Part shown: positions 8,439-58,947 of the stretch, in pieces
Layout of the letters: each line of letters starts with the position of its first letter
Position numbering within the stretch: position 1 is the first letter of the stretch
NCBI GenBank assembly: GCA_964463925.1
Contig: CAYXDV010000004.1
Coordinates: forward strand, 13,080 to 77,079
DNA: 64,000 nt
Reading direction: 5' to 3'
From: an uncultured Gammaproteobacteria bacterium
GTDB taxonomy: Bacteria; Patescibacteriota; Microgenomatia; UBA12405
The notes under the pieces: generated by a model
Told to the model about the DNA's origin: nothing
Seen by the model: the letters and a program-made list of their open reading frames with translations, nothing else
The model's database searches: none
Program-made: the position numbers and the translations under genes

Positions 8439-8813
8439 TTAAGAATATATTTTATTTCTTGGCCCGTTGTATTCAACAAATTTCCCAGAACCATCATAAA
8501 TAAAAACACCAGATTTTAATTTTGGCCAGTTCGGATTATATACATCACTCTTTTGAGTTTTTTGTGATAAGTTATTAAGCTGACGAGTTATCCCATCACC
8601 TGGCTTTGCACCAGATGTGAGTGCCGCCCTCTGTCGTCTAAATTCTTCTCGGCGTATTATTTCATCATCTGTCATAGGATTGAAACTACGCGAATTTCGG
8701 CGTTCCCACCTTTTTCTCTCTCGTTTATTTCCCATTGCCAATTGTAAAATACTTTTTTTAAAAAACAATCTACTTATATCAAAAATGTTAAAATAAACCA
8801 ATGTTGTTTCCAT
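8439..8813 (-). CDS. Hypothetical basic protein upstream of typA (probable true start about 8735, MGNKRERKRW...)
   Basis: ORF only; Arg/Lys-rich N-terminus; no recognisable motifs; the longest ORF would overlap the divergent gene start. Confidence 0.3.
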   Translation of the reverse strand: METTLVYFNIFDISRLFFKKSILQLAMGNKRERKRWERRNSRSFNPMTDDEIIRREEFRRQRAALTSGAKPGDGITRQLNNLSQKTQKSDVYNPNWPKLKSGVFIYDGSGKFVEYNGPRNKIYS

Positions 8814-14515: not shown

Positions 14516-15700
14516 ATGTTTTTAATCTTCGTAATCTTCTTTCTTCTAATCAATCCAAATTTCACTCGTGCTCAAAGTTCCGCAGACGAACTTCAAGCAA
14601 AAATAGTTGAGTATACCGCCAAAATTACACAGTTACAAAAAGCCCAAGATACCTTAGAAAATCAGCTAGCTTATTTAAACTCTCAAACACAATTAACTCA
14701 GTTAAAAATAACCCAAACAGAAGTAACAATCGATATTCTGAAAAAGGATATTAGTAAATTATCAAACGATATAGACAATCTTGATTCATCTCTAAACCAA
14801 CTTTCCTCAGCTTATTTAACTCAGATTAGTCAGTTGTACAAGCTAGGTAAAACCAACAACTTGCTTACTATGGTTTTAAAAAGAAATTTCAATGACTTTT
14901 ATCGTGATTACAGATATCTAAGTGATATCCAGACTAATCATAAAAGTTTATTAGTTAATATGGAAACTACTCGCACAAACTTCGACAATCAAAAGCAAGA
15001 AAAGCAAGAAAAGCAGACACAGTTACAAAAACTCCAAACTGAGTTAGACAGAGAAAAACAAAGCCTGGCTAGTCAAACAAAAGCCAAAAATAATTTACTT
15101 GCTGATACAAAAAATAGCGAACAAACATATCAGCAAAAATTATCAGAGGCCAAAGCACAACTTGCTTCTTTTCGCCGATTTATTACCAGCCAAGGAGGTG
15201 CTTCTATCCTTAAAAACCAAACCAAATGTGATGACTGGGGTTGTTATTATAATCAGCGGGATTCACAGTGGGGCAATATGGGGATTGGGCTAAGCCCAGA
15301 TTCTATGGCTGAATACGGTTGTCTTATTACGTCCTCGGCCATGATAGCTACTCATTATGGGAAAAATATAAAACCTTCAGATATAGCTGGAAATTCGAGC
15401 AACTTTTTTGGTAGGACAGCCTATATGCAGCAAGGGAGCATTACTGCCAATGGTGCAAGTATTACCAGAACTCGAGTTGCCGCAACCTTGGCAAATATTA
15501 CCTCCGAAGTTAGTGCTGGCCGGCCTGTAATCGTTGGTGTAAGAATATCCGGCGGTGAGCATTTTGTGGTCATAAAAAAGAAAGAAGGGGATCAATTTAT
15601 TATGAACGACCCATTTGTGGAATCAGGCAAAGATATCGTCTTTACTACTAAATATTCCTTATCCTCAATCTACAAAGTTGATTATATTAAAGTAAATTAG
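14516..15700 (+). CDS. Secreted coiled-coil protein with a C-terminal C39-like cysteine peptidase domain (PcsB/EnvC-like candidate FtsEX-regulated hydrolase)
   Basis: Signal peptide; about 200 aa of coiled coil (QKQEKQEKQTQLQKLQTELDREKQ); C-terminus YNQRDSQWGN...YGCLITSSAMIATHYG...GRPVIVGV...GGEHFVVIKK...FIMNDPF, matching the Peptidase_C39_2-like Cys/His pattern. Confidence 0.65.
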   Translation: MFLIFVIFFLLINPNFTRAQSSADELQAKIVEYTAKITQLQKAQDTLENQLAYLNSQTQLTQLKITQTEVTIDILKKDISKLSNDIDNLDSSLNQLSSAYLTQISQLYKLGKTNNLLTMVLKRNFNDFYRDYRYLSDIQTNHKSLLVNMETTRTNFDNQKQEKQEKQTQLQKLQTELDREKQSLASQTKAKNNLLADTKNSEQTYQQKLSEAKAQLASFRRFITSQGGASILKNQTKCDDWGCYYNQRDSQWGNMGIGLSPDSMAEYGCLITSSAMIATHYGKNIKPSDIAGNSSNFFGRTAYMQQGSITANGASITRTRVAATLANITSEVSAGRPVIVGVRISGGEHFVVIKKKEGDQFIMNDPFVESGKDIVFTTKYSLSSIYKVDYIKVN

Positions 15701-15768: not shown

Positions 15769-16374
15769 TTAATATCCTCGGGCTAGTCTCCTTGCGGAGT
15801 AGCCAACAACGATCAAGCCAACAGATAACATAGTTTTTACAACAATATCAGCAGCTCCAGTATCTGGCACTGGTACTGCACCTACATATACAGCTGAAGT
15901 ATCAGAATCGCTAGCACCATTACTACAAACAGCTAAGCTAGCAGCAACTTTTTTGCTACTTACACAGTTCTCGCCAACTTTGGCTCTAACTGTATAAACT
16001 TTTTTCTCGCCAGCTTTTAGCTCATCAATTGTCCAACTCAGTTTATTATTGGTCATTTTATCTTGATTTGGGCCAAAAACTAGTGAAAAACACTGTGGCA
16101 AACTAAAATCTACTTTAACATTTGTCTGACTTACACTGTTTGGATTTTCAATAGATACCTGATATTCCACCAGATCACTCTTTTTGAAAATATACTGATT
16201 AATAGACAAATTATCAGAAAACTTATCAAGAGACATTGACCTTACTTGAACATCGTCAACTACACAGGAATTGTTACTACCCGTGCTGGTATATTGTGCC
16301 AAAACTACAGGTCTACTTAATAGTAGAACAGTCAAGGCAAGAGACAAGGTTATTAGTATATTTCTTTGTTTCAT
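15769..16374 (-). CDS. Secreted surface protein with a sortase-type C-terminal sorting signal (VPDTG + TM + RRLARGY)
   Basis: N-terminal signal peptide; C-terminus PVPDTGAADIVVKTMLSVGLIVVGYSARRLARGY has an LPXTG-like motif, a hydrophobic helix and a basic tail. Confidence 0.5.
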   Translation of the reverse strand: MKQRNILITLSLALTVLLLSRPVVLAQYTSTGSNNSCVVDDVQVRSMSLDKFSDNLSINQYIFKKSDLVEYQVSIENPNSVSQTNVKVDFSLPQCFSLVFGPNQDKMTNNKLSWTIDELKAGEKKVYTVRAKVGENCVSSKKVAASLAVCSNGASDSDTSAVYVGAVPVPDTGAADIVVKTMLSVGLIVVGYSARRLARGY

Positions 16375-16429: not shown

Positions 16430-17158
16430 ATGAACTCAAATAGCAAATATCTTTTATCCGAGCTTTCAGTTTTTTTCCCTTGTTACAATGAATCCGAAAA
16501 TATCGAGAAAACAGTAACTTCAGCCATCACTGTTTTGAAAAAGATCGCAAAACAATGGGAAGTAATCATTGTTAATGATGGTTCAAAGGATGATACTCTG
16601 GGAAAAGCCAAGTCTTTACAGGTAAAGTATCCCAAAAATATTATCATTATTGATCATCCAAAAAATCTTGGTTATGGTGGTGCTTTTAAATCAGGCTTAT
16701 TTAAGGCCAAATATCAGTGGATAACTTTTACGGACTCTGATGGACAATTTGATTTTTCGGAATTAAAAAAACTTATCACTACTCAGCAAAAAGATCAGGC
16801 CGATGTAGTTGTCGGTTATCGCCTAAAACGACAAGACCCGAAAATTCGCAGTCTAATTGCCGGTATGCTTAAGGCTTGGAATTTTGTTTGGTTTGGCTTT
16901 CACGGAATAAAAGATGTTGATTGTGCTTTCAAGCTTTTTAAAAAAGAAGCAATTGATTCGGTTGCACCATTAAAAACCCAAAGTGCCATTACCACAACAG
17001 AATTACTAATTAAATTACAAAAGCACGGCTACAAAATCAGCCAAGTTGGCGTACATCATTACCCTAGAAAATTCGGTAGTCAAACAGGTTCTAACTTTAA
17101 AGTTATCAAACGTGCCGCAGTAGACAGTTTCAATTTATGGCGTGCTCTAAGCGCATAG
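16430..17158 (+). CDS. GT2 polyprenol-phosphate glycosyltransferase (DPM1/GtrB/ArnC-like)
   Basis: FFPCYNESENIEK...VIIVNDGSKDDT...DSDGQFD; 242 aa, DPM1-like. Confidence 0.85.
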   Translation: MNSNSKYLLSELSVFFPCYNESENIEKTVTSAITVLKKIAKQWEVIIVNDGSKDDTLGKAKSLQVKYPKNIIIIDHPKNLGYGGAFKSGLFKAKYQWITFTDSDGQFDFSELKKLITTQQKDQADVVVGYRLKRQDPKIRSLIAGMLKAWNFVWFGFHGIKDVDCAFKLFKKEAIDSVAPLKTQSAITTTELLIKLQKHGYKISQVGVHHYPRKFGSQTGSNFKVIKRAAVDSFNLWRALSA

Positions 17159-18552
17159 TTCTAACTAAAGTGCTTCTTGTTTTAGTCTTAATCTTTTCCG
17201 CTTTTTTGCGCCTATATAAAATAGATGGCTATATGGAATTTTTAGGAGACCAGGGCAGAGATGTCGTTCATGTTTGGGAATTTATAACCAAGGGTAATCT
17301 TATGTTTATTGGTCCCCAAACTTCAATCGGGAATATGTATCTTGGCCCCTGGTACTACTATTTGATCGCACCTTCTTTGTGGCTTTTCCATTTCAATCCC
17401 ATAGGTCCGGCAGTTTTTGTAGCAATTCTTGGAGTATTAACTACCTACTTGATTTACAAGGTCGGATCAAATTGGTTTGACAATAAAGCTGGCCTATTTG
17501 CTAGCCTAATTTTTGCTATTTCACCGGTAGTCATTAAATACACAAGTTTTTCATGGAATCCAAATATAATGCCTTTTTTTTCATTATTATTTATCTATTA
17601 TCTATCCAAAAAACGCTATCTCTTGGCAACTATCAGCTTTGTCTTTGTTCTAAATTCTCACTATCTCGGTTTATTGCTTTTAATTCCTGCCGCGTATATT
17701 TTTTATATAACTAATCCAAAACCAAACAAAAAAACCATTTTGACTAGTCTGTTTGTTTTACTACTTGGATTTCTGCCACTAATATTATTCGACCTAAAAC
17801 ATCATGGTCAAAACGTTGGAAATATATGGCATTTTTTTTCAAACAGACAAGAAACAGTTAATCTAAAAGCATATAAAGCATTACCAAACCTATGGCCACT
17901 ATTTACCCAAATTACTGGTCGAATCTTCTCATTGTGGGATCAATCTTTTTTAAATATCTTTTCATTACTCTTTTTGGGATTAACCATTCTTTTTATAGCA
18001 AAAAAACGCAGTCAAAATTTAATTTTAGTTTCAATCTGGATTTTTGGTGGCTTAGTTGGTTTTGGTCTTTATAAGCAACATATTTATGACCACTATTTTG
18101 GTTTTCTTTTCCCTGCCTTTTGTCTTTTAATGGGTTATATAGCTTCAAAAACCAAATTGCTTGGATCACTAATGGTTTTGCTAATTGTTTACTTTTCTTA
18201 TTATCATTCATCTCTACATTTTCAGCCAAACAATCAACTTCAGAGAACACAAAAAATTGCAGCAGAGATTTTATCAGATTCACGGGGGGATGATTTTAAT
18301 CTGGCCCTTCTTGCAAAACAAAATTATGATCCTCCATACCGCTATTTTCTGTGGCTAAATGAAGCACCAATGTATTCAATTACCGACAAAAAGACTTCGC
18401 AGCTATATGTAATTTGCGAGATGGAAATAGACCAATGCAAACCACTTGGTAATCCTGAATACAATATTGCTGCTTTTGGTGTTGCTAAACTCAAAAAGCA
18501 GTGGCAAGTAGACCAAATCACTATATATAAATTGGTAGCTGATAAAATTTAG
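17137..18552 (+). CDS. Polytopic membrane protein, putative GT-C fold glycosyltransferase; paralog of 58948-60267
   Basis: At least 10 predicted TM helices; shared N-terminal motif LRLYKI...FLGDQGRDV...IGPQTS...PWYYYL. Confidence 0.5.
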   Translation: MACSKRIVLTKVLLVLVLIFSAFLRLYKIDGYMEFLGDQGRDVVHVWEFITKGNLMFIGPQTSIGNMYLGPWYYYLIAPSLWLFHFNPIGPAVFVAILGVLTTYLIYKVGSNWFDNKAGLFASLIFAISPVVIKYTSFSWNPNIMPFFSLLFIYYLSKKRYLLATISFVFVLNSHYLGLLLLIPAAYIFYITNPKPNKKTILTSLFVLLLGFLPLILFDLKHHGQNVGNIWHFFSNRQETVNLKAYKALPNLWPLFTQITGRIFSLWDQSFLNIFSLLFLGLTILFIAKKRSQNLILVSIWIFGGLVGFGLYKQHIYDHYFGFLFPAFCLLMGYIASKTKLLGSLMVLLIVYFSYYHSSLHFQPNNQLQRTQKIAAEILSDSRGDDFNLALLAKQNYDPPYRYFLWLNEAPMYSITDKKTSQLYVICEMEIDQCKPLGNPEYNIAAFGVAKLKKQWQVDQITIYKLVADKI

Positions 18553-18553
18553 T

Positions 18554-19312
18554 ATGCAGTTGTCGATTGTTGTCCCATGTTATAACGAAGAAAATAATCT
18601 AAAACGTGGAGTCTTAGAAGAAATTTCCAAGTATCTCTTAAAGCAGGATTTTAGGTGGGAAGTAATAGTTGTTAACGATGAATCAACTGACTCAAGTGAA
18701 ACAATTTTACAAAAAAAGATTAAAAATCTACCAAATTTTTCACTTATCACCATAAAACATGGAGGCAAACCAGCAGCCGTTTGGGCAGGTATACAGCGAG
18801 CAAAATATTCCAACATTCTTTTTGCAGATATGGATCAATCTACCCCTATTACTGAATTACCAAAATTACTGCCCTGGCTAAAAGATGATTATTCTTTTGT
18901 AATAGGTTCCCGAGGTCACAGTAGAGATGGTACAACTTTGGTCAGAAAAGCAATGGCTTTTGCTTTTCTAAATTTTCGAAAAACAATGCTACTTTCAAAC
19001 ATAAACGACACCCAATGTGGCTTTAAAATAATAAATACTAAACTCGCAAAACGAATATTCCCTAAACTTGGTGTTTTCAATCAAACTGCCCAAACAGGTT
19101 GGCGTGTTTCTGCATTTGATGTAGAGCTACTATTTTTAGCCCAGAAAATGGGTTATAAAATTAAAGAAGTTGAAGTTGTTTGGAAAAATGAAGATACAAG
19201 CAATACTAAGGGTTCTGATTTGGCAAGATTTAAAAAAGAATCCAAGCAGATGCTAACAGAAATCATTCGAGTCAAAAAAAATGATTTATTAGGAAAATAT
19301 GAAAATATCTAA
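18554..19312 (+). CDS. GT2 polyprenol-phosphate glycosyltransferase (DPM1/GtrB-like)
   Basis: LSIVVPCYNEENNL...VIVVNDESTDSS...DMDQST. Confidence 0.85.
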   Translation: MQLSIVVPCYNEENNLKRGVLEEISKYLLKQDFRWEVIVVNDESTDSSETILQKKIKNLPNFSLITIKHGGKPAAVWAGIQRAKYSNILFADMDQSTPITELPKLLPWLKDDYSFVIGSRGHSRDGTTLVRKAMAFAFLNFRKTMLLSNINDTQCGFKIINTKLAKRIFPKLGVFNQTAQTGWRVSAFDVELLFLAQKMGYKIKEVEVVWKNEDTSNTKGSDLARFKKESKQMLTEIIRVKKNDLLGKYENI

Positions 19313-20807
19313 AGAATTATTCATCTTTTCCTTTTTTGCAATTGTTTTTTTCTCAAGCCGATTAGCCAATTTAACATCTCTACCAGTTTTTGCTGACGAA
19401 GCCATTTATATTCGTTGGGCCCAAATTATGAAAGCAGTAGAGACACTGCGTTTCCTTCCTCTAACTGACGGAAAACAACCATTGTTTATGTGGTCAATTA
19501 TTCCTTTTCTAAAATTCATATCTGATCCACTGTTAGCAGGTCGATTCGTTTCTGTTTTTTCTGGATTTTTATCTTTTACCGCTCTCTGGTTTCTTTGCGG
19601 ACTCGTCAACTTATCTGAAAAAAAACCTGAAAACCCCATAGATTTATTACAAGTTACCTTTTCCAAAAATTTGATATTAAAGTCAATCTTGAGTTTGTTA
19701 TTTTTAGCAAACACTTATACATTTTTCTTTGATCGTCTGGCAACTGCTGACAATTTATTGCTTGCCTTTTTGTTGCTGAGCCTAGATTTAGTTTTGCTAC
19801 AAACGGTCTATCTAAGGCTTGATTTAAGTTTGTTAATTGGCGGTTTTTTGGGGCTTGCCTGGCTAACCAAATCACCAGCAATCATTTTTCTTTTTCTAAC
19901 CACCATCTATCAATTAGTCTTTGCCAAAAACAAAATCAAATCGTTTTCTCTCTCTTTGATCTCTGCTTGCTTGATGTTTACAATTTACAATTTGCTACGC
20001 CTTGGTCCACAGTATCACATGATTGCCTTACGCAACCTTGATTATGTTTGGCCGCTCTCTGAAGTTATCAAACACCCCCTAGATCCACTAAAGCCACACT
20101 TTTTTAGTTATCTTCATCTGCTTTTTCAGTATCTTGGCCCAATAATCATCTTAATTCCCATTGGTTTGCTTCTCAATAATTTTAAAAATAAAATCTTTTT
20201 TCTCTTATTTTTTTTATTGCCAACTCTGGCAGTTTTATCCACCACTAAAGTTTTTACTGCAAGATATCTACTATTTACCTTACCGTTTTTACTTATATTT
20301 CTTGCAAATACTATAGATAACATTTTCAAAAAGAACAGATCCATATCAATCGGACTACTGTTGATTGCAGTCTTGCCCTGCCTTCTCTCAACCACCAAAA
20401 TCCTACTAGACCCCTATAAATATAAGTTCCCCACAAGTGAATCAGGATACAACTTGGATTGGACTAGTGGCTGGGGGATTAAAGAAGTTGCTAAATATGC
20501 CAAACAGCAAGCCGAAAAGGGTAACAACGTAATTCTCGCTGCTGAGGGGAATTTTGGAAATCCAAAAGATGGGCTTCAAATGTATCTAAATAATCAAAAA
20601 AATGTTACGGTCATACCTCAAGAACCACTCTTATACCAAGTATCCCCAGATTTGGAAAAAGCAAAATTGGCAGGAGATTTAGTGCTAATTGTTCACAATA
20701 GCCAACGTTTTCATATAACTGACCCAATTCAGCTTAGTCATTTAAAATCCATCGCCTCATATCCAAAACCTGATGGAAGTCAACTATTATTATTCCAATT
20801 AAAATGA
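19299..20807 (+). CDS. PMT_2/ArnT-like GT-C glycosyltransferase (GT39/GT83-like)
   Basis: FADEAIYIRWAQ...DGKQPLFMW...AGRFVSVFSG matches the DEx(Y)...KPPL...R loop of ArnT/Pmt enzymes; polytopic. Confidence 0.6.
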   Translation: MKISKELFIFSFFAIVFFSSRLANLTSLPVFADEAIYIRWAQIMKAVETLRFLPLTDGKQPLFMWSIIPFLKFISDPLLAGRFVSVFSGFLSFTALWFLCGLVNLSEKKPENPIDLLQVTFSKNLILKSILSLLFLANTYTFFFDRLATADNLLLAFLLLSLDLVLLQTVYLRLDLSLLIGGFLGLAWLTKSPAIIFLFLTTIYQLVFAKNKIKSFSLSLISACLMFTIYNLLRLGPQYHMIALRNLDYVWPLSEVIKHPLDPLKPHFFSYLHLLFQYLGPIIILIPIGLLLNNFKNKIFFLLFFLLPTLAVLSTTKVFTARYLLFTLPFLLIFLANTIDNIFKKNRSISIGLLLIAVLPCLLSTTKILLDPYKYKFPTSESGYNLDWTSGWGIKEVAKYAKQQAEKGNNVILAAEGNFGNPKDGLQMYLNNQKNVTVIPQEPLLYQVSPDLEKAKLAGDLVLIVHNSQRFHITDPIQLSHLKSIASYPKPDGSQLLLFQLK

Positions 20808-22477
20808 AATATTTTTTATCCCTAATCCTACTAATCATTCCTGCTTTTCTAGTTCTTTTAAAACCTGGCTATTACACCATGCATGATGATATGCAATTAA
20901 TACGCCAATTAGAAATGGACAAGTGTTTTTCAGATGGACAACTTCCGTGCCGTTGGGCTCCAGATCTTGGTTATGCTTATGGTTATCCTCTTTTTAATTT
21001 TTATCCACCATTGCCATATTATTTAGGGCACATAATTAGGCAGTTTGACTTCAGCTATATTGATACTGTAAAGATTCTTGGAATTTTGCAAATAATATTA
21101 TCAGCAACAACAATGTTTTTTCTTGGAAAAACACTACTAGGTGATCAAGGGGGTTTTATTTCTGGTCTGGTGTACACCTACGCACCATATCGCTTTAACA
21201 ATATCTATATTCGTGGTGCTTTTAATGAAGCCTGGGCTTCGGTATTTTTCCCGTTAGTCATCCTCTTTATTTATCGACAAATTCAAAAACCTAGCTTTTC
21301 CAACACAATACTGCTAAGTATGTCAATGGCAGGGGTTCTTCTATCACACAATCCGATGGCTTTGCTATTTTTTCCACTTGCAGGGTTTGTAGGAATCTTC
21401 TGGCTGGTTAAAAAGTTTTCATTCAAAACCATTTTGTATCTCATTTTTTCAGGAGTTCTTGCCCTTGGCTTGACCTCGTTTTTTACTCTGCCAGTTATTT
21501 TTGAAAGTAAACTAGTACAGATAGAAACAATGTTTAGTAATTATTATTCATTTGACGCACACTTTACCTCTATAAAACAGCTATTCTTTAGCAATTTTTG
21601 GGGAGATGGTCCATCACATTTTGGTCCACAGGACGGAATGTCTTTTTCCATCGGCTATATCCATTGGATGTTGCCACTTATTGGCTCTGTAAGTAGTTTA
21701 CTTTTAGTAATTAAGAAAAGAAAGTTCGACCATCTATCACAAACCATACTTATATCGTGTTTCATTGGTTTTATATGTCTTTTTTTATCACACGAGCGTT
21801 CGGCTTTCTTTTGGTCCCATATAAAGATTATTCAAAAAATACAGTTTCCTTGGCGCTGGTTAAACTTAGCAACTTTTTTTCTTTCCATTTCAACATCTAG
21901 CTCTCTCATAAGGCTTTCTAAAACTAAATTTTTTAAACCAAGTGTATTTTTTATATTAACAAGCGTCATTCTAGTTAATTATTATTATGCTTCACCTTTG
22001 CGTTGGGGGCCGCTAACTGACGAACAAAAATTCTCTGGACAATCATGGACAAATCAAATCACCTCGGGAATCTATGACTATTTACCAAAAACAGCCAGAA
22101 TTGCCGCTCAAAAACCCAGTGGGGGAGGTATCGATCAAACTATCCCTCCAGAAACTCTAAAAAACTTCACTCATCGTCAGGGTACTGATTGGGATCTTAT
22201 CAATCTGAATCTATCCTCAGCATCTACTGTTTATCTCAGTCGTCTAGATTTCCCAACTACCAATGTCTACGACAATGGTAAGCCTATTTCTCATACAGCC
22301 GAGCCAGAGCTGGGACGTATATCTGTTGACTTAACATCTGGTTACCACCAGCTTTATATTAAGTTAACAAATACGCCAATTAGAGAGTACGGAAATTTGC
22401 TATCTTTGTTTAGCGTATTACTTATTCTCTTGGGTGTTTTATGGAAACCTTATCTTCGTCAGATTCGAGCCAAATAA
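20804..22477 (+). CDS. Large polytopic membrane protein, putative GT-C/YfhO-like glycosyltransferase; paralog of 32544-34193
   Basis: 557 aa; shared N-terminal motif ...MHDD...R.L.......DGQ.PCR......G...GYPLFNFYPP. Confidence 0.5.
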   Translation: MKYFLSLILLIIPAFLVLLKPGYYTMHDDMQLIRQLEMDKCFSDGQLPCRWAPDLGYAYGYPLFNFYPPLPYYLGHIIRQFDFSYIDTVKILGILQIILSATTMFFLGKTLLGDQGGFISGLVYTYAPYRFNNIYIRGAFNEAWASVFFPLVILFIYRQIQKPSFSNTILLSMSMAGVLLSHNPMALLFFPLAGFVGIFWLVKKFSFKTILYLIFSGVLALGLTSFFTLPVIFESKLVQIETMFSNYYSFDAHFTSIKQLFFSNFWGDGPSHFGPQDGMSFSIGYIHWMLPLIGSVSSLLLVIKKRKFDHLSQTILISCFIGFICLFLSHERSAFFWSHIKIIQKIQFPWRWLNLATFFLSISTSSSLIRLSKTKFFKPSVFFILTSVILVNYYYASPLRWGPLTDEQKFSGQSWTNQITSGIYDYLPKTARIAAQKPSGGGIDQTIPPETLKNFTHRQGTDWDLINLNLSSASTVYLSRLDFPTTNVYDNGKPISHTAEPELGRISVDLTSGYHQLYIKLTNTPIREYGNLLSLFSVLLILLGVLWKPYLRQIRAK

Positions 22478-23874
22478 AATCGAAAACAATTCAAGGTGCA
22501 CTGTATTTAACCATAAGAAATTTGGGGCTTCAGGCGATATCCGCCATAGGTTTTTTTATACTAAGTATTTATTTATCTGTATCAGAAATTGGAATTTTTG
22601 GAGTTGTGGTAGAAATTGTTGGAATTTTGGGATATTTTTCTGACATCGGTTTAGCAGCTTCATTAATTCAAAAAAAAGAAGAAGTGACCACTTCAGCTCT
22701 CCAAACCGTGTTCTTAATTCAACAAATATTAACACTAGTGGGCATTTTAGTGGCTACAATAATATTTATACCCTTAGCTTCTCAGCGTGGCTATGGAACA
22801 ACAGAAATTACAATCTTTACCACCCTGTGTTTCGCATTTTTTATTTCTTCATTAAAAACTATACCTTCGGTTCTATTAGAAAGAAAATTGTCATTTGAAA
22901 AGCTAGCAAGTGTAGATATTATAGAAAATCTAACCTTTTATTTAGTAGCAATCCTTGGGGCAGCTGTTGGTTTGGGTGCCAAATCATACGCTCTGGCCAC
23001 GGTCATAAGGTCGCTTTTTGGTCTCTTATTGATATATCGCCAAATGCCTTGGAGAATCGGTTTTGCCTTAGATACAAAATCAATAAGAGAACTACTAAAA
23101 TTCGGAATTCCGTTTCAGCTGAACAGTTTTGTAGCTCTTGCCAAGGACCGGCTATCAAATCTAGCACTTTCGGGAATCTTAAGCAGGCAGCCGTTTGGCT
23201 ATCTAACATGGGCAAACAAAATATCTCGTCTTTCAATTAGCCTAATGGATGCATTTATGAGAGTTCTCTTTCCTGCGCTTTCCAGACTACAGCACGAACC
23301 TGAAACTATAAAAAAACTTTTGTCAAAATCTTCATTTTTAATTGCTTCAGCTTCTTTTGGATTACTTGGTTTTGCCAACTTTTTCATACCAGTTTTAGTC
23401 AACCTATTTCCTAATTATCAAAAGTGGCAACCGGCGCTTGTATTGCTCCCATATCTATCAATCAATGCAGGTATTGCAGCTTTAACTACTCCTTTAAACA
23501 ACGCATTTAGCGCAGTTGGCAAAATAAAAACTAATAGTAAATATATGTTTATGTGGTTAATCTTAACTTGGCTTACTTACCCAACCTTAACCACCCGTTT
23601 GGGCCTGCAAGGTAGTATCTTAGCCATTATGATTGTAGGATTTAGTTCCTTCTTTGTTTGGTTTGAGGCCAACTCTTATTTTAAGATCAATACTTTCTCT
23701 GACATAGCTGCACCACTTTTCTCTTGTTTTTTGGGAATTATCTTTGCACTTCTTTTGCCGATAAGTTTAATCAAAGGACCAGTATTTCTAGTTGTGTATA
23801 CCCTTTCACTATTCTTATTAAAAACAGCTGAGTTTCAAAATATTTATCAAAGCTTTCAAAAACACCGTGCTTAA
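22441..23874 (+). CDS. Wzx-type (MOP superfamily) oligosaccharide/polysaccharide flippase
   Basis: 477 aa; about 12-14 TM helices; N-terminus KTIQGALYLTIRNLGLQAISAIGFFILSIYLSVSEIGIFGVV is typical of polysaccharide biosynthesis protein (Wzx/RfbX). Confidence 0.75.
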   Translation: METLSSSDSSQIKSKTIQGALYLTIRNLGLQAISAIGFFILSIYLSVSEIGIFGVVVEIVGILGYFSDIGLAASLIQKKEEVTTSALQTVFLIQQILTLVGILVATIIFIPLASQRGYGTTEITIFTTLCFAFFISSLKTIPSVLLERKLSFEKLASVDIIENLTFYLVAILGAAVGLGAKSYALATVIRSLFGLLLIYRQMPWRIGFALDTKSIRELLKFGIPFQLNSFVALAKDRLSNLALSGILSRQPFGYLTWANKISRLSISLMDAFMRVLFPALSRLQHEPETIKKLLSKSSFLIASASFGLLGFANFFIPVLVNLFPNYQKWQPALVLLPYLSINAGIAALTTPLNNAFSAVGKIKTNSKYMFMWLILTWLTYPTLTTRLGLQGSILAIMIVGFSSFFVWFEANSYFKINTFSDIAAPLFSCFLGIIFALLLPISLIKGPVFLVVYTLSLFLLKTAEFQNIYQSFQKHRA

Positions 23875-25507
23875 AATAAAATATTTTGCCATAATCTTCA
23901 TTTTTTCATTAATAATTTGTTTAACTACTTTCCAAAGTGGCCTTGTCAAATCCTATGGAATGGGCTTCTGGGGTCCAAATGGCCACGATGCCATTTGGCA
24001 TTTGGCTTTAATTTCCCAAATAAACTTTTTAAAACCAATTATCAATCCAATATATGCACCAGAATATCTCCAGCATTACCATTTGGGATTTGATATTTTT
24101 GTTGCCTATGTATCTAAGTTATTACCACTCTTTTCGGTGTCAGATTTATATTTTCGTTTCTTACCACTAGTTTTCTCAATTTGTTTAGGAATTTTGTCAA
24201 TCAAATTATACGCAAGCTTAAATCAAAGCAAAAAAGGTACAATACCATTGTTATTTTTTATTTATTTTGCCGGATCTTTTGGTTGGATTATCAACTTAAT
24301 ACGTTTTAAATCTCTCGGAGGTGAATCGCTTTTTTGGTCAATGCAAGCAGCTTCCGCACTTCTTAATCCTCCATACATTCTGTCTTTATTATTATTACTT
24401 TTTGGTCTAATCTCGTTTGATAACAAAAAAAACCCATTGTTGGTTGGTATCATCTTTTCTCTTTCTACTGCAGTCAAAGTTTATGCAGGAATTTTAATCG
24501 GCTTTTCCCTTTTAACCTTAACAATTCTTAGACCTAATCGCTACAAATTAATCATCACATTAGTCCATGGCCTACTTTCATTTTTTGTATTGTATTTATA
24601 TGGTGCTTTGCGTGGACCGTCACTTTTACACTTCCAACCATTTTGGTTTACACACAGCCTCATTAGCGCCTATGACAAATTGTACCTACCTTCTCTGGCC
24701 ACGCTTCAAGCAAATCTTAGTCAGAATATCTTTAGCTACAAACTTCCAATCTTGGTAGCTATAGAGCTATTTCTTGTATTTGTTTTTTGGTTTGGCAATA
24801 TGGGTACTCGGATATTGGGATTAAAAGAAATATTTCAAACAAAAAATACAGATTTAGTCATCTTGCTTAGAACCACTGTTTTGCTAGGTTTCTTAACACC
24901 GGTTTTTTTTATTCAAAAGGGAACTGCTTGGAATACTATTCAATTCTTATATTATAGTCTGTTTTTTCTTTCGTTCTTCGCAACCTTTGCCGTCAAAGAC
25001 TTTTCAACTCCAGTGTTAATCGTCGTCTTGGTCTTTACCTGTATTGGTTCCATCTCAACCATAAAAGATTATCTTGGATTCCCACCCCCAACAGCTATTT
25101 ATCCAGCAGAGCTTGAAGCCTTGGGTTTTCTTAAACAACAGCCAAAAGGATTAGTATTGACCTATCCTTATGATCAGTTCGAAAAAGACAAATATGCAAA
25201 AACACCACTCCCAATATATGCCTACGAATCAACTGCCTACGTCAGTGCAATAAGCCATCAATCAACCTTTCTTAGCGACGAGGTGAATCTTACCATCATG
25301 GACATCCCGTATCAGAGTCGTTTAAAGGATATAAGAGACTTTTTTTCCAATCCGGAAAAGTACAAAAACCGCGGCTTTCTTCTAAACAACCAAATTACTT
25401 ATATTTATCTAACCCACCAGCAAAAGTTGCCTCTTTCTACCGAAATTTTACAAATTGATAAAATTTTTAACAACTCCCAAGTCGAGATTTATAAAGTTCG
25501 CAGGTGA
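23867..25507 (+). CDS. Large polytopic membrane protein, putative GT-C glycosyltransferase
   Basis: 546 aa, more than 10 TM helices; GFWGPNGHDAIWHL motif; family uncertain. Confidence 0.4.
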   Translation: MLKIKYFAIIFIFSLIICLTTFQSGLVKSYGMGFWGPNGHDAIWHLALISQINFLKPIINPIYAPEYLQHYHLGFDIFVAYVSKLLPLFSVSDLYFRFLPLVFSICLGILSIKLYASLNQSKKGTIPLLFFIYFAGSFGWIINLIRFKSLGGESLFWSMQAASALLNPPYILSLLLLLFGLISFDNKKNPLLVGIIFSLSTAVKVYAGILIGFSLLTLTILRPNRYKLIITLVHGLLSFFVLYLYGALRGPSLLHFQPFWFTHSLISAYDKLYLPSLATLQANLSQNIFSYKLPILVAIELFLVFVFWFGNMGTRILGLKEIFQTKNTDLVILLRTTVLLGFLTPVFFIQKGTAWNTIQFLYYSLFFLSFFATFAVKDFSTPVLIVVLVFTCIGSISTIKDYLGFPPPTAIYPAELEALGFLKQQPKGLVLTYPYDQFEKDKYAKTPLPIYAYESTAYVSAISHQSTFLSDEVNLTIMDIPYQSRLKDIRDFFSNPEKYKNRGFLLNNQITYIYLTHQQKLPLSTEILQIDKIFNNSQVEIYKVRR

Positions 25508-25523
25508 TAAACTATATTAGACC

Positions 25524-26456
25524 ATGAGTTCAATTTCAGCAGTCATCAATGTCACACAATCAGAGATATCAGATTTAAAACACGCACTACGATCAATTAG
25601 GAGTCTGGTAGATGAAATAATTCTCGTCGACATGGCCAGTGGTGTCAATCTGGCTCCACTGGCTCATCGCTATCAGGCAAAAATCTATCCACATGAGTTA
25701 ATACCTGTGGTTGAACCAGCAAGAAATTTTGGCATTAGTAAAGCCACTTGCGATTGGATACTACTTTTGGACCCAGACGAGCGCCTCACACCTGAGCTTA
25801 AATTAGAACTAAAACGAATTTCCAGTCGGGACGATATCGATTATGTCCGCATACCTAGAAAAAATATTATTTTTAAAAAATGGCTACATTATAGCGGTTC
25901 TTGGCCAGACTATTTAATTCGGTTTTTTCGCAAGGGAACCGTTACCTGGAGTTCAAAAATACATAGTCAACCAAATTTACGTGGCAACGGACTAAGCTTA
26001 CAAGAAGAACCAAATTTTGCAATAAAACATTATAACTATAAGTCAGTCAGCGCTTATTTATCTAAAGCACTTCGATATAGTCATAAAAAAGCCAGAGAAC
26101 TCCTACAAAATCCAAATTATCACTTTAAGCTTGCTGATCTATTGTTAAAGCCAACCCAAGAGTTCAATAGTCGTTATTTTAGTCAAAAAGGATACAAAGA
26201 TGGTTTGCCTGGACTTGTCTTTTGTCTTCTCCAGGCTGCCCAAGAAATTTTAATTTATTCTTTAGTTTGGGATCAATCAAAAGACAGAAGAGTTTTGGTT
26301 AACAGAAAATCACTCATATCAGCCTTTGGTCAGGCAATCTATGAATTTGGCCACTGGTACACGAGTTTTCTTTTCCAGGAATATACCAAGAACCCGTTAA
26401 AATTCTTAATTTTCAGACTACGTCAGTTGTTAAATCGAATTACAAAAAATTTGTGA
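25524..26456 (+). CDS. GT2 glycosyltransferase (WaaE/KdtX-like subfamily); paralog of 27372-28145 and 38729-39520
   Basis: DEIILVD...WILLLDPDERLTPEL pattern shared with the two paralogs. Confidence 0.65.
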   Translation: MSSISAVINVTQSEISDLKHALRSIRSLVDEIILVDMASGVNLAPLAHRYQAKIYPHELIPVVEPARNFGISKATCDWILLLDPDERLTPELKLELKRISSRDDIDYVRIPRKNIIFKKWLHYSGSWPDYLIRFFRKGTVTWSSKIHSQPNLRGNGLSLQEEPNFAIKHYNYKSVSAYLSKALRYSHKKARELLQNPNYHFKLADLLLKPTQEFNSRYFSQKGYKDGLPGLVFCLLQAAQEILIYSLVWDQSKDRRVLVNRKSLISAFGQAIYEFGHWYTSFLFQEYTKNPLKFLIFRLRQLLNRITKNL

Positions 26457-27385
26457 TTAATTTGAGCACGGTTATAGTTAACTGGAATCAGGCTAGATTA
26501 ACGATTGATACTCTAAATTCTATTTTGGATTCAAAATTTCGATTTGAAATAAATCATTCAATTTTCGTAGTCGACAACGGTTCAAGTACTAAAGAGGTAG
26601 ATGTGCTTCAAACCTACATCCAGCAGCATTCAAATCTGCACTTAATTAAACTGAATACCAATACGGGATTTTGTCATGGATACAATCAAGGTATTCAAAA
26701 AGCCCTTCAGAATAATCCAGACTACATTACAATTGCAAATAACGATATTCGCCTTAAAACTGACACCATCGAAAAACTCATATCATTTTTACAAAAAAAG
26801 ACTATCTATTCGGCAGTTTCTCCATTAATTTATTTTGAAAAAGGCTACGAGTATCAAAAGAATAGATACAACAAAAAACAACTTGGCCATGTCATCTGGG
26901 CTGCTGGGGGGAATATTGACTGGAAAAACATTTATGGTAGCAATAATCTGATTGACAAAGTAGATACAGACAACTTACCAAAAATTATCCAAAAAATAGA
27001 TTTACTCTCAGGTTGTTTTGCAATTTTCAGGGGTAATGCTATTGAGCAAATTGGTGGCTTTGATGAAAAATATTATTTGTACTACGAAGATGCAGATTTG
27101 TTTACCAGATTACGTCAAAAGAAACTAAAGTTTGCCTGCTATACACCTGCAAAACTTTGGCATTTAAATTCAGCTAGTTCTAGCGCTGGTTCTGCTCTAC
27201 ATGATTATTTTTTAACCAGGAATAGACTGATTTTTGGCTTTCAATATGCTTCAATCAGGACTAGGGCAGCTCTATTAAAACAAGCCCTTATTCAATATTT
27301 TAAGCCAAGAAATAATTGGGAGAAGCAAGCAATACATGATTTTTTTACAAAAAAGTTTGGAAAAGGGAGCTGGAATGTCACTTAG
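26453..27385 (+). CDS. GT2 glycosyltransferase
   Basis: STVIVNWNQARLTIDTL...VVDNGSSTKE...D(x)D region YYEDADLF. Confidence 0.8.
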   Translation: MINLSTVIVNWNQARLTIDTLNSILDSKFRFEINHSIFVVDNGSSTKEVDVLQTYIQQHSNLHLIKLNTNTGFCHGYNQGIQKALQNNPDYITIANNDIRLKTDTIEKLISFLQKKTIYSAVSPLIYFEKGYEYQKNRYNKKQLGHVIWAAGGNIDWKNIYGSNNLIDKVDTDNLPKIIQKIDLLSGCFAIFRGNAIEQIGGFDEKYYLYYEDADLFTRLRQKKLKFACYTPAKLWHLNSASSSAGSALHDYFLTRNRLIFGFQYASIRTRAALLKQALIQYFKPRNNWEKQAIHDFFTKKFGKGSWNVT

Positions 27386-51439: not shown

Positions 51440-51448
51440 ATAATATTT

Positions 51449-58895: not shown

Positions 58896-58947
58896 TTATT
58901 TTTTAGAGTTTTTAAATAAGATTAAGTAAATACTGCATTCTACACTA

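Follow-up and report, generated by a model that had tools for sequence, protein, structure and literature searches.

In Streptococcus pyogenes, the GlcNAc side chain of the group A carbohydrate depends on GacI/GacJ/GacK/GacL, a "type b" multi-component system for transmembrane glycosylation as classified by Rismondo, Gillis and Gruendling 2021 (PMC8035078). GacI/K/L combine a cytoplasmic GT-A enzyme with a Wzx-type flippase (GacK) and a GT-C enzyme (PMC8035078). Several GT2/GT-C pairs per genome are found in Bacillus subtilis (CsbB/YfhO, YkoT/YkoS, and YkcC/YkcB), Lactococcus lactis (CsdAB, CsdCD, and CsdEF), and Listeria (GtlA/GtlB and GttA/GttB); each pair decorates a different wall polymer, and the donor is sometimes common to two GT-Cs (PMC8035078).

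The DNA analyzed here, termed the window, is a stretch of 64 kb from an uncultured bacterium of the Microgenomates (candidate phyla radiation). Like the genomes of these Firmicutes, it contains several adjacent GT2-to-GT-C pairs, and its overall logic is that of the GtrA/GtrB/GtrC and ArnC/ArnE-F/ArnT systems. With TM-less GT2 enzymes and a Wzx-type flippase, the locus comes closest to the GacI/K/L variant of S. pyogenes. Both have cytoplasmic GT-A/GT2 enzymes devoid of a TM anchor of their own, a polysaccharide operon that also codes for a Wzx-type flippase and a GT-C, and an ABC transporter-dependent polymer and an LCP protein nearby. Unlike the streptococcal system, the window is without a GacJ-like small membrane activator, two GT-Cs are found after one GT2, two modules are arranged in tandem, its Wzx protein has an obvious alternative substrate, and there is no sequence orthology.

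TM-less catalytic GT2 domains are also present in Ppm1 and PpgS (Rv3631) of mycobacteria and corynebacteria. There, Ppm1 and PpgS feed arrays of GT-C enzymes (Pmt, MptA-D, PimE, Rv3779, and Aft/Emb). Ppm1 needs a Ppm2/Lnt-like membrane domain, and the TM-less class comprising GacI, PpgS, and type-II DPM1 needs a membrane partner. By analogy, the many GT-C paralogs of the window may draw on Pren-P-sugars for building or decorating envelope glycans on the outer side of the membrane; the actinobacterial genes, however, are scattered, whereas one locus of 46 kb is found here, and orthology is lacking.

Organization of the Locus

An initial annotation had proposed three modules, each consisting of a short DPM1/GtrB-like GT2 gene followed by one or two GT-C genes. 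All eight ORFs concerned were found exactly at the positions given there, five on the plus and three on the minus strand (Table 1). The three modules stand, but the inventory was incomplete: the short GT2s have a fourth paralog, and the GT-C genes number ten or more, at least five of which, at 32544-38732 and 58948-60267, come in addition to the five listed. The step from three modules to at least three different polyprenol-P-sugar donors, taken in the initial annotation, is conjectural. In total, some 15 GT2/GT4 genes and ten or more polytopic proteins are encoded in the window.

Table 1: Features of the locus (positions are those of the window).
Feature	Description	Position	Strand	Basis
LCP	LytR-CpsA-Psr family protein, 4 kb upstream	11427-12443	+	PF03816 1.9e-21
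G2a	TM-less GT2, 242 aa, module 1	16430-17158	+	PF00535 8.6e-31
Ca	GT-C, PMT_2/GT39-GT83-like, 471 aa, ~9 TM helices, module 1	17137-18552	+	PMT_2
G2b	TM-less GT2, 252 aa, module 2	18554-19312	+	PF00535 2e-23
Cb	GT-C, GT39-like, 502 aa, module 2	19299-20807	+	homolog annotation
Cc	GT-C, PTPS_related PF10131, 557 aa, module 2 (second GT-C)	20804-22477	+	Pfam
Wzx	Wzx/MOP-family flippase, 477 aa	22441-23874	+	Polysacc_synt_3 9e-36
Cd	conserved polytopic protein, 546 aa, ~12 TM helices and C-terminal soluble domain	23867-25507	+	
Five cytoplasmic GTs	order GT2, GT2, GT2, GT4, GT2	25524-30044	+	Pfam
GT-C array	Cc2 32544-34193, Ce1 34174-35748, Ce2 35726-37297, Ce3 37275-38732	32544-38732	+	
G2d	fourth TM-less GT2 of the subgroup, 246 aa	40579-41319	+	phmmer to G2a/G2b/G2c
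ABC system	ABC-2 permease, ABC ATPase, 1031-aa methyltransferase-GT4-GT2 fusion	49960-54544	+	Pfam
Cg	membrane glycosyltransferase with GT-C fold, 487 aa, module 3	54537-56000	-	AF2 and Foldseek
Cf	membrane glycosyltransferase with GT-C fold, 551 aa, module 3	55997-57652	-	AF2 and Foldseek
G2c	TM-less GT2, 236 aa, module 3	57622-58332	-	PF00535 3.7e-32
MT	SAM-dependent methyltransferase, head of module 3 operon	58329-58895	-	Methyltransf_23/11
Ca2	paralog of the GT-C Ca, 439 aa, divergent from module 3	58948-60267	+	phmmer, hhalign
PF03706 protein	MprF-flippase-like membrane protein (LPG_synthase_TM)	60281-61204	-	PF03706 3.3e-24

The region 16430-30044 is a conserved Microgenomates operon, which adjoins the LCP gene and ftsEX. 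It comprises modules 1 and 2, the genes for Wzx and the polytopic protein Cd, and those of five cytoplasmic glycosyltransferases, by which the operon is completed and whose order is the same in relatives. The latter enzymes have no match to the ArnC, AglJ, or PpgS models and presumably synthesize a backbone or repeating unit; an initiating phosphoglycosyltransferase is not encoded in the window. The ftsEX genes are located upstream of the operon. Immediately ahead of it, there is a conserved gene for a C-terminally anchored surface protein (DUF11/CLIPPER), and the LCP gene, coding for a candidate ligase of glycopolymer to peptidoglycan, has the same position in the relative L001. In all modules, neighboring genes overlap or abut (overlaps of 22, 14, and 4 nt and a gap of 1 nt).

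Conservation was assessed in 80 related loci, with counts referring to loci in which both genes were found. G2a is directly adjacent to Ca in 49/49 loci (median gap -8 nt) and G2b to Cb in 67/77 (median gap -20 nt), which bears out the proposed pairing of the GT2s with adjacent GT-Cs; this adjacency is far beyond chance. Cb is followed by Cc in 58 of 71 loci, Cc by Wzx in 59 of 65, and Wzx by Cd in 57 of 58. The order G2a-Ca-G2b-Cb-Cc-Wzx-Cd-GTs is preserved in relatives at about 45% protein identity.

A variable accessory part of lower GC content harbors module 3 and, at 32.5-38.7 kb, the GT-C array. One relative (L082/L083) has kept module 3 in the order MT-GT2-GT-C-GT-C, together with the methyltransferase, an ortholog of Ca2 (470 aa), the PF03706 protein, and the ABC system. 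The three genes of the latter, which also flank module 3 in that relative, are predicted to serve ABC transporter-dependent polymer synthesis.

The Short GT2 Enzymes

G2a, G2b, and G2c are, as judged from their sequences, predicted polyprenyl-phosphate sugar synthases. Their proposed assignment to the DPM1/GtrB/ArnC type is supported by the finding that GtrB, ArnC, and archaeal Dol-P-Man synthase are their best structural relatives over the full length. A GT2 profile (A5) aligned with GtrB at 6e-36, with ArnC at 3e-33 (positions 5-232 of 244), and with Pyrococcus furiosus DPMS (5mlz) at 8e-32 (positions 5-226); GT2 structures of non-Pren-P enzymes align to it only over the N-terminal ~125 residues. 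In individual PDB searches, ArnC was the best match of G2a (3.8e-14 over residues 10-226, with DPMS and GtrB also found) and of G2c (5.6e-17 over residues 4-211, followed by DPMS and GtrB), while G2b matched GtrB best (8e-10), then ArnC and DPMS. The best solved relatives are thus GtrB (5ekp) and ArnC (9bhc, 8vxh, 9hwj). G2c is matched by the AglJ model at 3e-25. Conserved residues of G2a include D102-x-D104, the invariant D162, K168, E191, and R..G..TG; G2b has the motifs D-x-D-Q-S-T-P, IGSR, and D-T-Q-C-G-F-K, the last of which presumably resembles that of ALG5. No QxxRW motif is present at the processive position, and a processive synthase is not indicated. The nine other GT2s in the window, used as control, gave no match at E<1e-8 to the models for ArnC, AglJ, PpgS, and Dol-P-hexose.

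According to phmmer, G2a-d form one subgroup, separate from the other GT2s of the window, with pairwise identities of 23-29%. G2d, which matches the three others at 1e-18 to 1e-19, aligns with the PpgS model over 4-220 of 226 positions; an end-to-end alignment with this model is also obtained for G2a. In G2d, the DxD motif is degenerate (D-S-G), and the gene located 3' encodes a TM-tailed GT2 instead of a GT-C; the order GT4-G2d-TM-tailed GT2-rSAM is also found in the relative L085.

NCBIfam equivalog cut-offs are reached by none of the GT2s (64-89 bits versus cut-offs of 325-529; for ArnC, 64-78 versus 529 bits), and none is an ortholog of ArnC, AglJ, PpgS, or PgfS. The Dol-P-sugar synthase fold and motifs are shared with DPM1, ALG5, and AglJ, which operate with the GT-Cs PMT/ALG/STT3; lipid carrier and acceptors of the eukaryotic and archaeal systems differ, however, and the scores stay below all curated cut-offs. 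The window's enzymes are short (236-252 aa versus ~310-330 aa of GtrB and ArnC with their two TM helices): no TM helices are predicted for G2a, G2b, and G2c, and the TM helices found in GtrB, ArnC, and P. furiosus DPMS are missing, among them those at the C-terminus of GtrB and ArnC, which the GT2s of the Firmicutes pairs have as well. In this respect, the enzymes are similar to the TM-less class of GacI, PpgS, and type-II DPM1; a GacJ-, DPM3-, or Ppm2-like membrane partner is not encoded anywhere in the 64 kb.

The GT-C Enzymes

The five neighboring membrane proteins, described as GT-Cs in the initial annotation, are indeed GT-C by fold and motif, on the evidence of Pfam, homolog annotation, or AlphaFold2/Foldseek; from this we infer transferase activity. 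Because PDB-sequence profile searches with Ca, Cb, Cc, Cf, and Cg gave nothing significant, the assignment of Ca, Cb, and Cc is based on Pfam, homolog annotation, and hhalign rather than on a structural model. Ca and Cc exceed the Pfam gathering scores of PMT_2 (36.3 bits) and PF10131 (32.1 bits), respectively; Cc has a weak match to PMT_2 in addition. PF10131 is a member of the GT-C clan CL0111 (PMC7801869). Cb has no Pfam match of its own, but many of its 2455 homologs match PMT_2/PF13231 and are named GT39 or ArnT-like; its relatives occur in at least 587 species-level genomes. By hhalign, Ca is connected to Ce (96%), Cg (93%), and Cb (83%), and Cb to Ce (96.5%), in a network that includes Ca, Cb, Ce, Cg, Cc, and Cf.

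For Cf and Cg of module 3, AF2 models were obtained with pLDDT values of 83.5 and 86.2, respectively, and a pTM of 0.88 each. In Foldseek searches against the PDB, the best match of Cf is ArnT (5ezm, 5.6e-6), followed by ALG12, STT3, PglB, Pmt4, AftA, and Emb; Cg matches PglB, STT3, ArnT (TMq 0.56), DPY19, and AftD/B/A, and its homologs carry the name GT39.

Each of these GT-Cs has the expected acidic signature just past TM1. The motif is F-L-G-D37-x-G-R-D42 in Ca (at least 95% conserved in 62 sequences), F-x-D-E-A-I-Y-x-R-W with invariant D33-E34 in Cb, M-H27-D28-D29 in Cc, P45-D46...D50 (invariant) in Cf, and Y-D-E in Cg (D26 invariant, E27 at least 90%). It recurs as F-N-D-M-G-R-D in Ca2, which matches Ca at 2e-18 (phmmer) and 99.5% (hhalign), and as W-D-E or P-D-E in the array at 32544-38732. 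In this array, Cc2 is a paralog of Cc (phmmer 1e-67), Ce1, Ce2, and Ce3 match one another at 1e-30 to 1e-70, and Ce2 and Ce3 have PMT/PMT_2 matches in Pfam. One GT-C-like protein carries a TMTC-like TPR tail.

Flippase Candidates

A flippase of the GtrA or ArnE/F type, as used in the Gtr and Arn systems, is not encoded within the window; in the Firmicutes with GT2/GT-C pairs, the GtrA-type flippase (GtcA/CflA) is encoded elsewhere in the genome. Two proteins had been put forward for this function. The protein at 60281-61204 covers positions 2-302 of the 302 of the PF03706 profile; its synteny with module 3 in a relative makes it a reasonable candidate, though for this module only. For the TM-tailed GT2 at 41312-42271, no evidence for flipping was found.

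The conserved Wzx protein encoded after modules 1 and 2, overlooked in the initial annotation, is matched by MOP flippase, TuaB, and O-glycosylation Wzx models. With GacK as the precedent (PMC8035078), it is a candidate flippase for the lipid-linked glycan and/or Pren-P-sugars; since five cytoplasmic glycosyltransferases are encoded downstream, their Und-PP-oligosaccharide is the obvious alternative substrate, and Wzx may simply flip this. The adjacent protein Cd, fused to Wzx in P0251, has an invariant G-F-W-G-x-N-G-H40-D41 motif past TM1; it gave no Pfam, NCBIfam, or PDB match, profile search included.

Proposed Pathway and Acceptors

The GT2 profile, the GT-C evidence, and the absence of refuting motif patterns uphold the core of the initial annotation, that is, DPM1/GtrB/ArnC-type GT2s and GT-Cs in a three-component logic. 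With a probability of roughly 0.72, the genes of this region specify multi-component systems for transmembrane glycosylation, in which a wall-linked glycopolymer is the most likely acceptor. At the cytoplasmic face, G2a-d would each transfer one sugar from its nucleotide-activated form to polyprenyl (undecaprenyl) phosphate, as suggested by homology. The lipid-linked monosaccharide would then be flipped to the outer face, possibly by Wzx or, in the accessory module, by the PF03706 protein. There, the downstream GT-Cs would transfer the sugar to the extracytoplasmic acceptor by means of the Asp/Glu motif in the first outer loop; two GT-Cs following one GT2 would probably have a common donor but distinct acceptor sites or linkages. 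Synthesis of the lipid-linked backbone would fall to the cytoplasmic GT2/GT4 enzymes that the same operon encodes (25524-30044) and, in the accessory part, to the ABC transporter-dependent ones at 49960-54544, whereas attachment of the polymer to the wall would be catalyzed by the LCP enzyme encoded upstream.

By the same mechanism, secreted or surface proteins (pilins, S-layer, or the upstream DUF11 protein) could be O-glycosylated, with the GT-Cs acting like actinobacterial or eukaryotic Pmt or like PgfM1/M2 of Streptococcus mutans; this is considered rather unlikely. The families matched in Pfam, PMT and PMT_2, are those of protein mannosyltransferases, but PMT_2 is a catch-all family including ArnT- and YkcB-like enzymes. 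Protein acceptors would also suit the GT2 matches to PgfS and AglJ of protein glycosylation, the DUF11/CLIPPER protein conserved directly upstream, and the TPR tail; yet some 15 cytoplasmic glycosyltransferases, Wzx, an ABC-2 exporter, and an LCP protein are the setting of a typical glycopolymer locus, and MIR or WW-like protein-binding domains were not detected with Pfam.

It is quite improbable that the GT2s extend an Und-PP-oligosaccharide and that the GT-Cs are PglB/WaaL/Wzy-like polymerases, ligases, or oligosaccharyltransferases, with no Pren-P-monosaccharide involved. The scores below equivalog cut-offs, the lack of TM helices and of a GtrA/GacJ partner, the presence of Wzx in the operon, and the best Foldseek match of Cg, PglB/STT3, which use PP-linked donors, would be compatible with this. 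However, the similarity of the GT2s over their full length, C-terminal 100 residues included, is specific to Pren-P GT2 structures and is not shared by the window's other GT2s; the lineage-wide one-to-one GT2/GT-C adjacency with translational overlap is a signature of donor synthase and transferase and not of polymerases; and at least ten polymerases or ligases at one locus would be unprecedented. That the genes of a GT-rich locus lie side by side by chance, or that the annotation is in error, is rejected by the synteny counts as practically negligible: with so many GT2/GT4 genes and polytopic proteins some adjacency is expected, but the same pairs, order, and overlapping stop/start codons are found, at 40-50% protein identity, in independent species-level genomes (49/49 and 67/77), and the DPM1-like subgroup is limited to four GT2s, 3/4 of them directly followed by GT-Cs.

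Most likely, the gene pairs serve to charge a membrane lipid with single sugars in the cell interior, which are then attached on the outside to a polymer or protein of the surface. This GT2/GT-C logic is well known elsewhere; here, two such pairs are part of a lineage-conserved operon.

Organization of the Glycan Locus

The window is gene-dense, with a G+C content of ~35%, and from 16.4 to ~63.4 kb it is occupied by a single large glycan-biosynthesis region. The eight ORFs in which the initial annotation had recognized GT2/GT-C modules are all present, with exact coordinates. Gene spacing inside the modules is tight, comprising overlaps of 22 nt, 14 nt, and 4 nt and a gap of 1 nt. Upstream of the region, genes of housekeeping and envelope function encode SerRS, SecA, BipA, RF2, an LCP-family protein, FtsE and FtsX, together with a DUF11 surface protein and a protein of coiled-coil/C39-like type.

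Features of the glycan locus and its surroundings (window positions)
Feature	Position	Strand	Assignment	Length or motif
C39-1	8801-9409		Peptidase_C39_2-like protein	
LCP	11427-12443		LCP-family protein	
C39-2	14516-15700		Peptidase_C39_2-like protein	long N-terminal coiled coil
DUF11	15769-16374	-	DUF11/CLIPPER surface protein	C-terminal PDTGA, hydrophobic stretch, RRLARGY
Core operon	16430-30044	+	conserved operon, G2a to GT run	
G2a	16430-17158	+	short GT2, module 1	D-S-D
Ca	17137-18552	+	GT-C, module 1	G-D37-x-G-R-D42
G2b	18554-19312	+	short GT2, module 2	D-M-D
Cb	19299-20807	+	GT-C, module 2	D33-E34
Cc	20804-22477	+	GT-C, module 2	H-D28-D29
Wzx	22441-23874	+	MOP-family flippase	
Cd	23867-25507	+	polytopic protein	546 aa
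GT run	25524-30044	+	glycosyltransferases	
393-aa protein	30814-31995		polytopic protein	393 aa
Cc2	32544-34193		GT-C	
Ce1-3	34174-38732		GT-Cs	
G2d	40579-41319	+	short GT2	246 aa; D-S-G
TM-tailed GT2	41312-42271		Glyco_trans_2_3/MftF-like GT2	319 aa; QHSRYG
Radical SAM	42290-43795		B12-binding radical SAM protein	
GT2 pair	43770-44777, 44758-45756		GT2s with C-terminal TM segments	332-335 aa
TPR-tailed protein	48226-50019	-	polytopic protein	597 aa; S-D-D
Export block	49960-54544		ABC-2 permease, ATPase, methyltransferase-GT4-GT2 fusion	fusion, 1031 aa
Cg	54537-56000	-	GT-C, module 3	D26-E27
Cf	55997-57652	-	GT-C, module 3	P-D46...D50
G2c	57622-58332	-	short GT2, module 3	D-G-D
Ca2	58948-60267		GT-C	
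PF03706 protein	60281-61204		MprF-flippase-like protein	

Several neighbouring genes merit mention. The second of the two Peptidase_C39_2-like proteins is located after FtsEX, that is, in an EnvC-like position, which suggests an FtsEX-controlled wall hydrolase. The C-terminus of the DUF11/CLIPPER protein is reminiscent of a sortase sorting signal; the gene is kept immediately upstream of the operon in L001, a related locus, and its product is a possible candidate for a glycosylation substrate. Within the glycan locus, a B12-binding radical SAM protein has an HpnJ-like best match (146 bits, well under the cut-off) and may serve in sugar or lipid modification, for example, C-methylation or ring contraction.

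Short GT2 Enzymes

The short GT2 enzymes were initially assigned to the DPM1/GtrB/ArnC type, and this assignment holds. The three enzymes originally listed are confirmed, while a fourth paralog, G2d, had been overlooked. All carry the GT2 domain PF00535 (Pfam, E values from 1e-23 to 1e-32), and in an all-against-all phmmer comparison of the window proteins they form one subgroup, with mutual E values of 1e-10 to 1e-20, apart from the nine other GT2s. The best solved relatives of G2a, G2b, and G2c are in each case ArnC, the Dol-P-Man synthase of Pyrococcus furiosus (PfDPMS), and GtrB of Synechocystis. A profile of 244 positions (A5), built from the four short GT2s and their orthologs, matches GtrB with 6e-36 (positions 4-182), ArnC with 3e-33 (positions 5-232), and DPMS with 8e-32 (positions 5-226). 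The next structures, among them chondroitin and heparosan synthases and TagF, are aligned up to about position 125 only, which corresponds to the nucleotide-binding half; the similarity to enzymes of proven polyprenyl phosphate (Pren-P) specificity thus extends through the acceptor half of the domain. In NCBIfam, the four enzymes match the ArnC, AglJ, PpgS, and Dol-P-hexose transferase models across nearly their full length, while none of the nine control GT2s of the window matches any of these models at E<1e-8.

The DxD motif is degenerate in G2d, in which the second Asp is lost. Other conserved residues of the short GT2s are an invariant Asp in the context D-x-x-C-G/A-F-K, one Lys, and one Glu. 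A Q(Q/R)xRW motif, which would be indicative of processive synthases, does not occur at the synthase position; the sole match of this type, QDFRW at residue 31 of G2b, lies in the N-terminal strand, so that the DPM1-like reading stands. Two other GT2s, 332-335 aa long and ending in TM segments, were considered as the "true" GtrB-like enzymes and rejected, as they match none of the ArnC, AglJ, and PpgS models. Against the curated cut-offs, the best scores of the GT2s are 54-89 bits versus 325-529 bits required (ArnC, AglJ, PpgS, PgfS, and Dol-P-hexose transferase models), and among the GT2s and GT-Cs there is none that scores above the cut-off of an NCBIfam model. Since no score approaches an equivalog cut-off, sugar specificity and product cannot be named.

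GT-C Enzymes

The membrane proteins encoded next to G2a, G2b, and G2c are GT-C enzymes, as had been proposed. By Pfam, Ca has a match to PMT_2 and Cc to PF10131, both above the gathering score; PF10131 is a member of the GT-C clan CL0111 (PMC7801869). Cb has no Pfam match of its own, and many of its 2455 homologs match PF13231 and are named "glycosyltransferase family 39" or "ArnT-like". The families of Cf and Cg are small (36 and 24 homologs, resp.); the GT-C Pfam match of Cf stays under the gathering score (22 bits), and Cg is without its own match, with PF13231 found in its homologs. By a Kyte-Doolittle scan, which is crude and both over- and under-counts, the GT-Cs possess 7-13 hydrophobic segments, with 8-13 given for the neighbours of the short GT2s.

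Confident, alignment-based AlphaFold2 models of Cf and Cg (pLDDT 83.5 and 86.2, resp.; pTM 0.88 each) display a helical bundle followed by a C-terminal alpha/beta domain. Upon Foldseek comparison with the PDB, exclusively GT-C enzymes are among the top matches, which are ArnT (5.6e-6), ALG12, STT3, PglB, ALG9, Pmt4, AftA, and Emb for Cf, and PglB, STT3, ArnT (TMq 0.56), DPY19, and AftD/B/A for Cg; for these two proteins, the probability is 1.00 and TMq to GT-C structures is 0.48-0.56. Ca, Cb, and Cc are linked with the other GT-C families by local profile-profile alignment with hhalign, at 70-96%. The values are 96% for Ca-Ce, 96.5% for Cb-Ce, 96% for Ce-Cg, 93% for Ca-Cg, 83% for Ca-Cb, 70% for Ca-Cc, and 69% for Ce-Cf. 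The assignment is drawn from Pfam, homolog annotation, hhalign, and the two AlphaFold2 models, because none of the PDB chains, all of which were searched, was matched significantly by the sequence profiles of Ca, Cb, Cc, Cd, Cf, and Cg (best match, GPI mannosyltransferase for Ca, E 0.037).

Lack of an Asp/Glu signature would speak against GT-C enzymes, and a conserved acidic motif is present in every family. In all five proteins it lies no more than ~20 residues past the first TM helix and is invariant or at least 90% conserved among 17-80 homologs; from the topology, the acidic loop would be extracytoplasmic. The original tally of GT-Cs was too low, with Cc2, Ce1-3, and Ca2 also belonging to this class. 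Further polytopic proteins, namely, Cd, the TPR-tailed protein, and the 393-aa protein, are possible additional members. The TPR-tailed protein has ~12 TM helices, with its S-D-D motif after the first of them, and ends in TPR repeats, so that its architecture is of the TMTC-like GT-C-plus-TPR kind; no Pfam family matches the membrane portion.

Conservation of the Core Operon

In a scan with the Cb alignment, using one genome per species, at least 587 genomes proved to contain relatives. Of these loci, the best 80 belong to Shapiro-, Woese-, Ames-, and Blackburnbacteria and other Microgenomates, with identities up to 47%. Their ORFs were mapped to the window proteins, and adjacency was counted where both genes were present. 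Almost all of these 80 loci with a sufficiently long flank exhibit the order G2a-Ca-G2b-Cb-Cc-Wzx-Cd-GT2-GT2-GT2-GT4-GT2. G2a is followed by Ca in 49/49 loci (median gap, -8 nt) and G2b by Cb in 67/77 (median gap, -20 nt); adjacency was further counted for Cb and Cc in 58 of 71 loci, for Cc and Wzx in 59 of 65, and for Wzx and Cd in 57 of 58. Independent look-ups revealed the same order in L001 (a 45% relative), with genes for RF, LCP, FtsEX, and a DUF11 protein upstream, and in L087 (a 66% relative). Because the gene order is kept across related loci, positions 16430-30044 represent a core operon that is conserved in the lineage. The claim that GT2 and GT-C enzymes are encoded as pairs is thereby borne out, given the adjacent or overlapping genes and the retention of this adjacency in the counted loci as well as in L082/L083, the locus related to module 3.

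The interval between Ca and G2b is a variable slot in an otherwise fixed operon. In the window Ca abuts G2b directly, while the median gap among relatives is 1381 nt, and many of them (L003, L010, L012, L016, L023, L037, L053-L057, and others) have up to three additional ORFs here that are weakly similar to Ca. Many GTDB/INSDC records with the Microgenomates operon (L002, L005, L007-L012, and others) bear the title "uncultured Gammaproteobacteria bacterium", while a single record is entitled "Candidatus Methanoperedens sp."; these titles are probably placeholder or mis-binned labels. In the limited literature covered, no paper describing the operon in Microgenomates, Patescibacteria, or CPR was found, which is accordingly weak evidence.

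Module 3 and the Accessory Region

Around module 3 (52000-60000), the G+C content is 0.30 versus 0.34-0.37 in the conserved operon, and homologs of the encoded proteins number tens, not thousands. This region is probably an accessory, exchangeable part of the locus. In the single related organism found for module 3 (L082/L083), the whole block is retained, including a methyltransferase, a GT2, Cf-like, Cg-like, and Ca2-like proteins, a PF03706 protein, a 975-aa MT-GT4-GT2 fusion, and an ABC-2 exporter. The window's own ABC-2 permease, ATPase, and methyltransferase-GT4-GT2 fusion, kept beside module 3 in L082/L083, resemble WbdD/WbdA-type chain-length-controlled, ABC transporter-dependent polymer synthesis. 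As to G2d, its context in L085, another related locus, is GT4-G2d-TM-tailed GT2-B12 radical SAM, as in the window, with no GT-C directly after G2d.

Membrane Attachment and Flipping

According to a hydropathy scan, all four short GT2s are devoid of TM helices, whereas GtrB, ArnC, and PfDPMS have C-terminal TM helices. The short GT2s therefore fall into the TM-less class of GacI, PpgS, and type-II DPM1. In known cases, PpgS and type-II DPM1 depend on a membrane partner, and the same applies to GacI (PMC8035078). No small membrane-protein gene that could encode a partner of the DPM3/GacJ/Ppm2 type is present in the locus or the window. G2a and G2b have a C-terminal amphipathic helix; when membrane-binding helices of this type were sought by a scan of the hydrophobic moment, the DPM1-like GT2s were not distinguishable from the control GT2s. 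G2d overlaps by 8 nt with the TM-tailed GT2, which possesses four C-terminal TM helices; the two may constitute a two-protein enzyme, with the TM-tailed GT2 anchoring G2d.

With regard to flipping of the lipid-linked sugar, genes for GtrA (PF04138), GacJ-like (DUF2304), or ArnE/F-like proteins were not found by Pfam in the 64-kb window, nor was a free-standing small ORF found in the locus. The TM-tailed GT2, initially suggested as a flippase, was dropped, since it is a Glyco_trans_2_3/MftF-like GT2, with four TM helices at the C-terminus and the motif QHSRYG, and nothing ties it to flipping. The other protein suggested for this function, the full-length MprF-flippase-like PF03706 protein, shows synteny with module 3 and remains a fair candidate, though for that module only. 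Missed at the time was the MOP-family flippase Wzx, which is present and syntenic in the core operon and is the conserved flippase candidate there. In S. pyogenes, flipping of Pren-P-GlcNAc is ascribed, as a proposal, to GacK, which is likewise of the Wzx type, and the GT-A enzyme of that system is also cytoplasmic (PMC8035078). The assignment of Wzx to Pren-P-sugar stays at candidate level, because the protein also has an obvious conventional substrate.

Cd has ~12 TM helices, the first of which is followed by the invariant sequence G-F-W-G-x-N-G-H-D-x-x-W-H; the protein is without a match in Pfam, NCBIfam, or the PDB, profile search included. An exhaustive search yielded 939 relatives, many of which comprise 850-1170 aa; the long ones have an additional N-terminal extracytoplasmic domain that is not found in the window. 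In P0251, a 1639-aa protein, Wzx, this additional domain, and Cd are united. Cd may function in polymerization or ligation or as the partner of a flippase.

Proposed Pathway and Acceptor

For the two types of enzyme, family and fold are observed features, as are the catalytic-type motifs and the conserved gene coupling, and the modules most likely follow the known logic of three-component or multi-component transmembrane glycosylation. The three-component system was reportedly treated as a class by Mann and Whitfield in 2016. In multi-component systems, a cytoplasmic GT-A enzyme makes Pren-P-sugar, the lipid is flipped, and a GT-C enzyme transfers the sugar outside (PMC8035078; Rismondo et al. 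2021). Accordingly worded for the window, the short GT2s would act as cytoplasmic GT-A enzymes, with Pren-P as the presumed lipid acceptor; the resulting Pren-P-sugar would be flipped across the membrane, and the GT-Cs would move the sugar to an acceptor outside the membrane. The two GT-Cs of one module would presumably draw on a common donor.

The closest described system is GacI/J/K/L of S. pyogenes. The same logic underlies GtrABC and ArnC/ArnT, the sets of several GT2/GT-C pairs known from L. lactis, B. subtilis, and Listeria, and the network of Ppm1/PpgS plus GT-C enzymes in mycobacteria. The window differs from known systems in its TM-less GT2s without a recognisable partner, in having two GT-Cs per GT2 and modules in tandem, in the presence of at least 10 GT-C genes within one 46-kb locus of a small-genome organism, and in the lineage-wide conservation of the first two modules.

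The acceptor is deduced from gene context, which favours a wall glycopolymer, because 5-15 cytoplasmic GTs are present along with Wzx, an LCP gene, and an ABC-2 exporter that is accompanied by a fusion enzyme of WbdA/WbdD-like type. Set against this context, transfer to protein in a Pmt- or Pgf-like manner is rather unlikely. Still more doubtful is a far-reaching version of the wall glycopolymer reading, according to which a major wall glycopolymer that defines the lineage would be assembled by Microgenomates for the most part on the outer face of the membrane, in a mycobacterial-like line of at least 10 GT-Cs fed by four TM-less Pren-P-sugar synthases without a known partner type or GtrA. If true, synthases would have to be recruited to the membrane, and Pren-P-sugars flipped, in a new way, for example, via Cd, an unclassified protein that is regularly located beside Wzx in the loci counted and sometimes fused to it.

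Significance

Genomes of CPR/Patescibacteria are ~1 Mb in size, and the cell surface of Microgenomates, whose lifestyle is thought to be attached to other cells, is almost uncharacterised. Despite genomes of this scale, ~46 kb are given to glycan assembly in the organism of the window. The first 14 kb, encoding two GT2/GT-C modules, Wzx, Cd, and five GTs, are a probable core envelope pathway of the lineage, because their order is kept across hundreds of Microgenomates species, next to LCP and FtsEX genes. Concrete, testable candidates are provided by the four small soluble GT2s, which should be easy to express, and by GT-Cs with defined catalytic motifs, and attention is drawn to the flipping of lipid-linked sugar and the membrane recruitment of TM-less synthases. 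As the mechanism would be that of textbook three-component glycosylation, known biology is extended to a new lineage and not altered; the locus offers no new mechanism and is a solid lead into the Microgenomates envelope.
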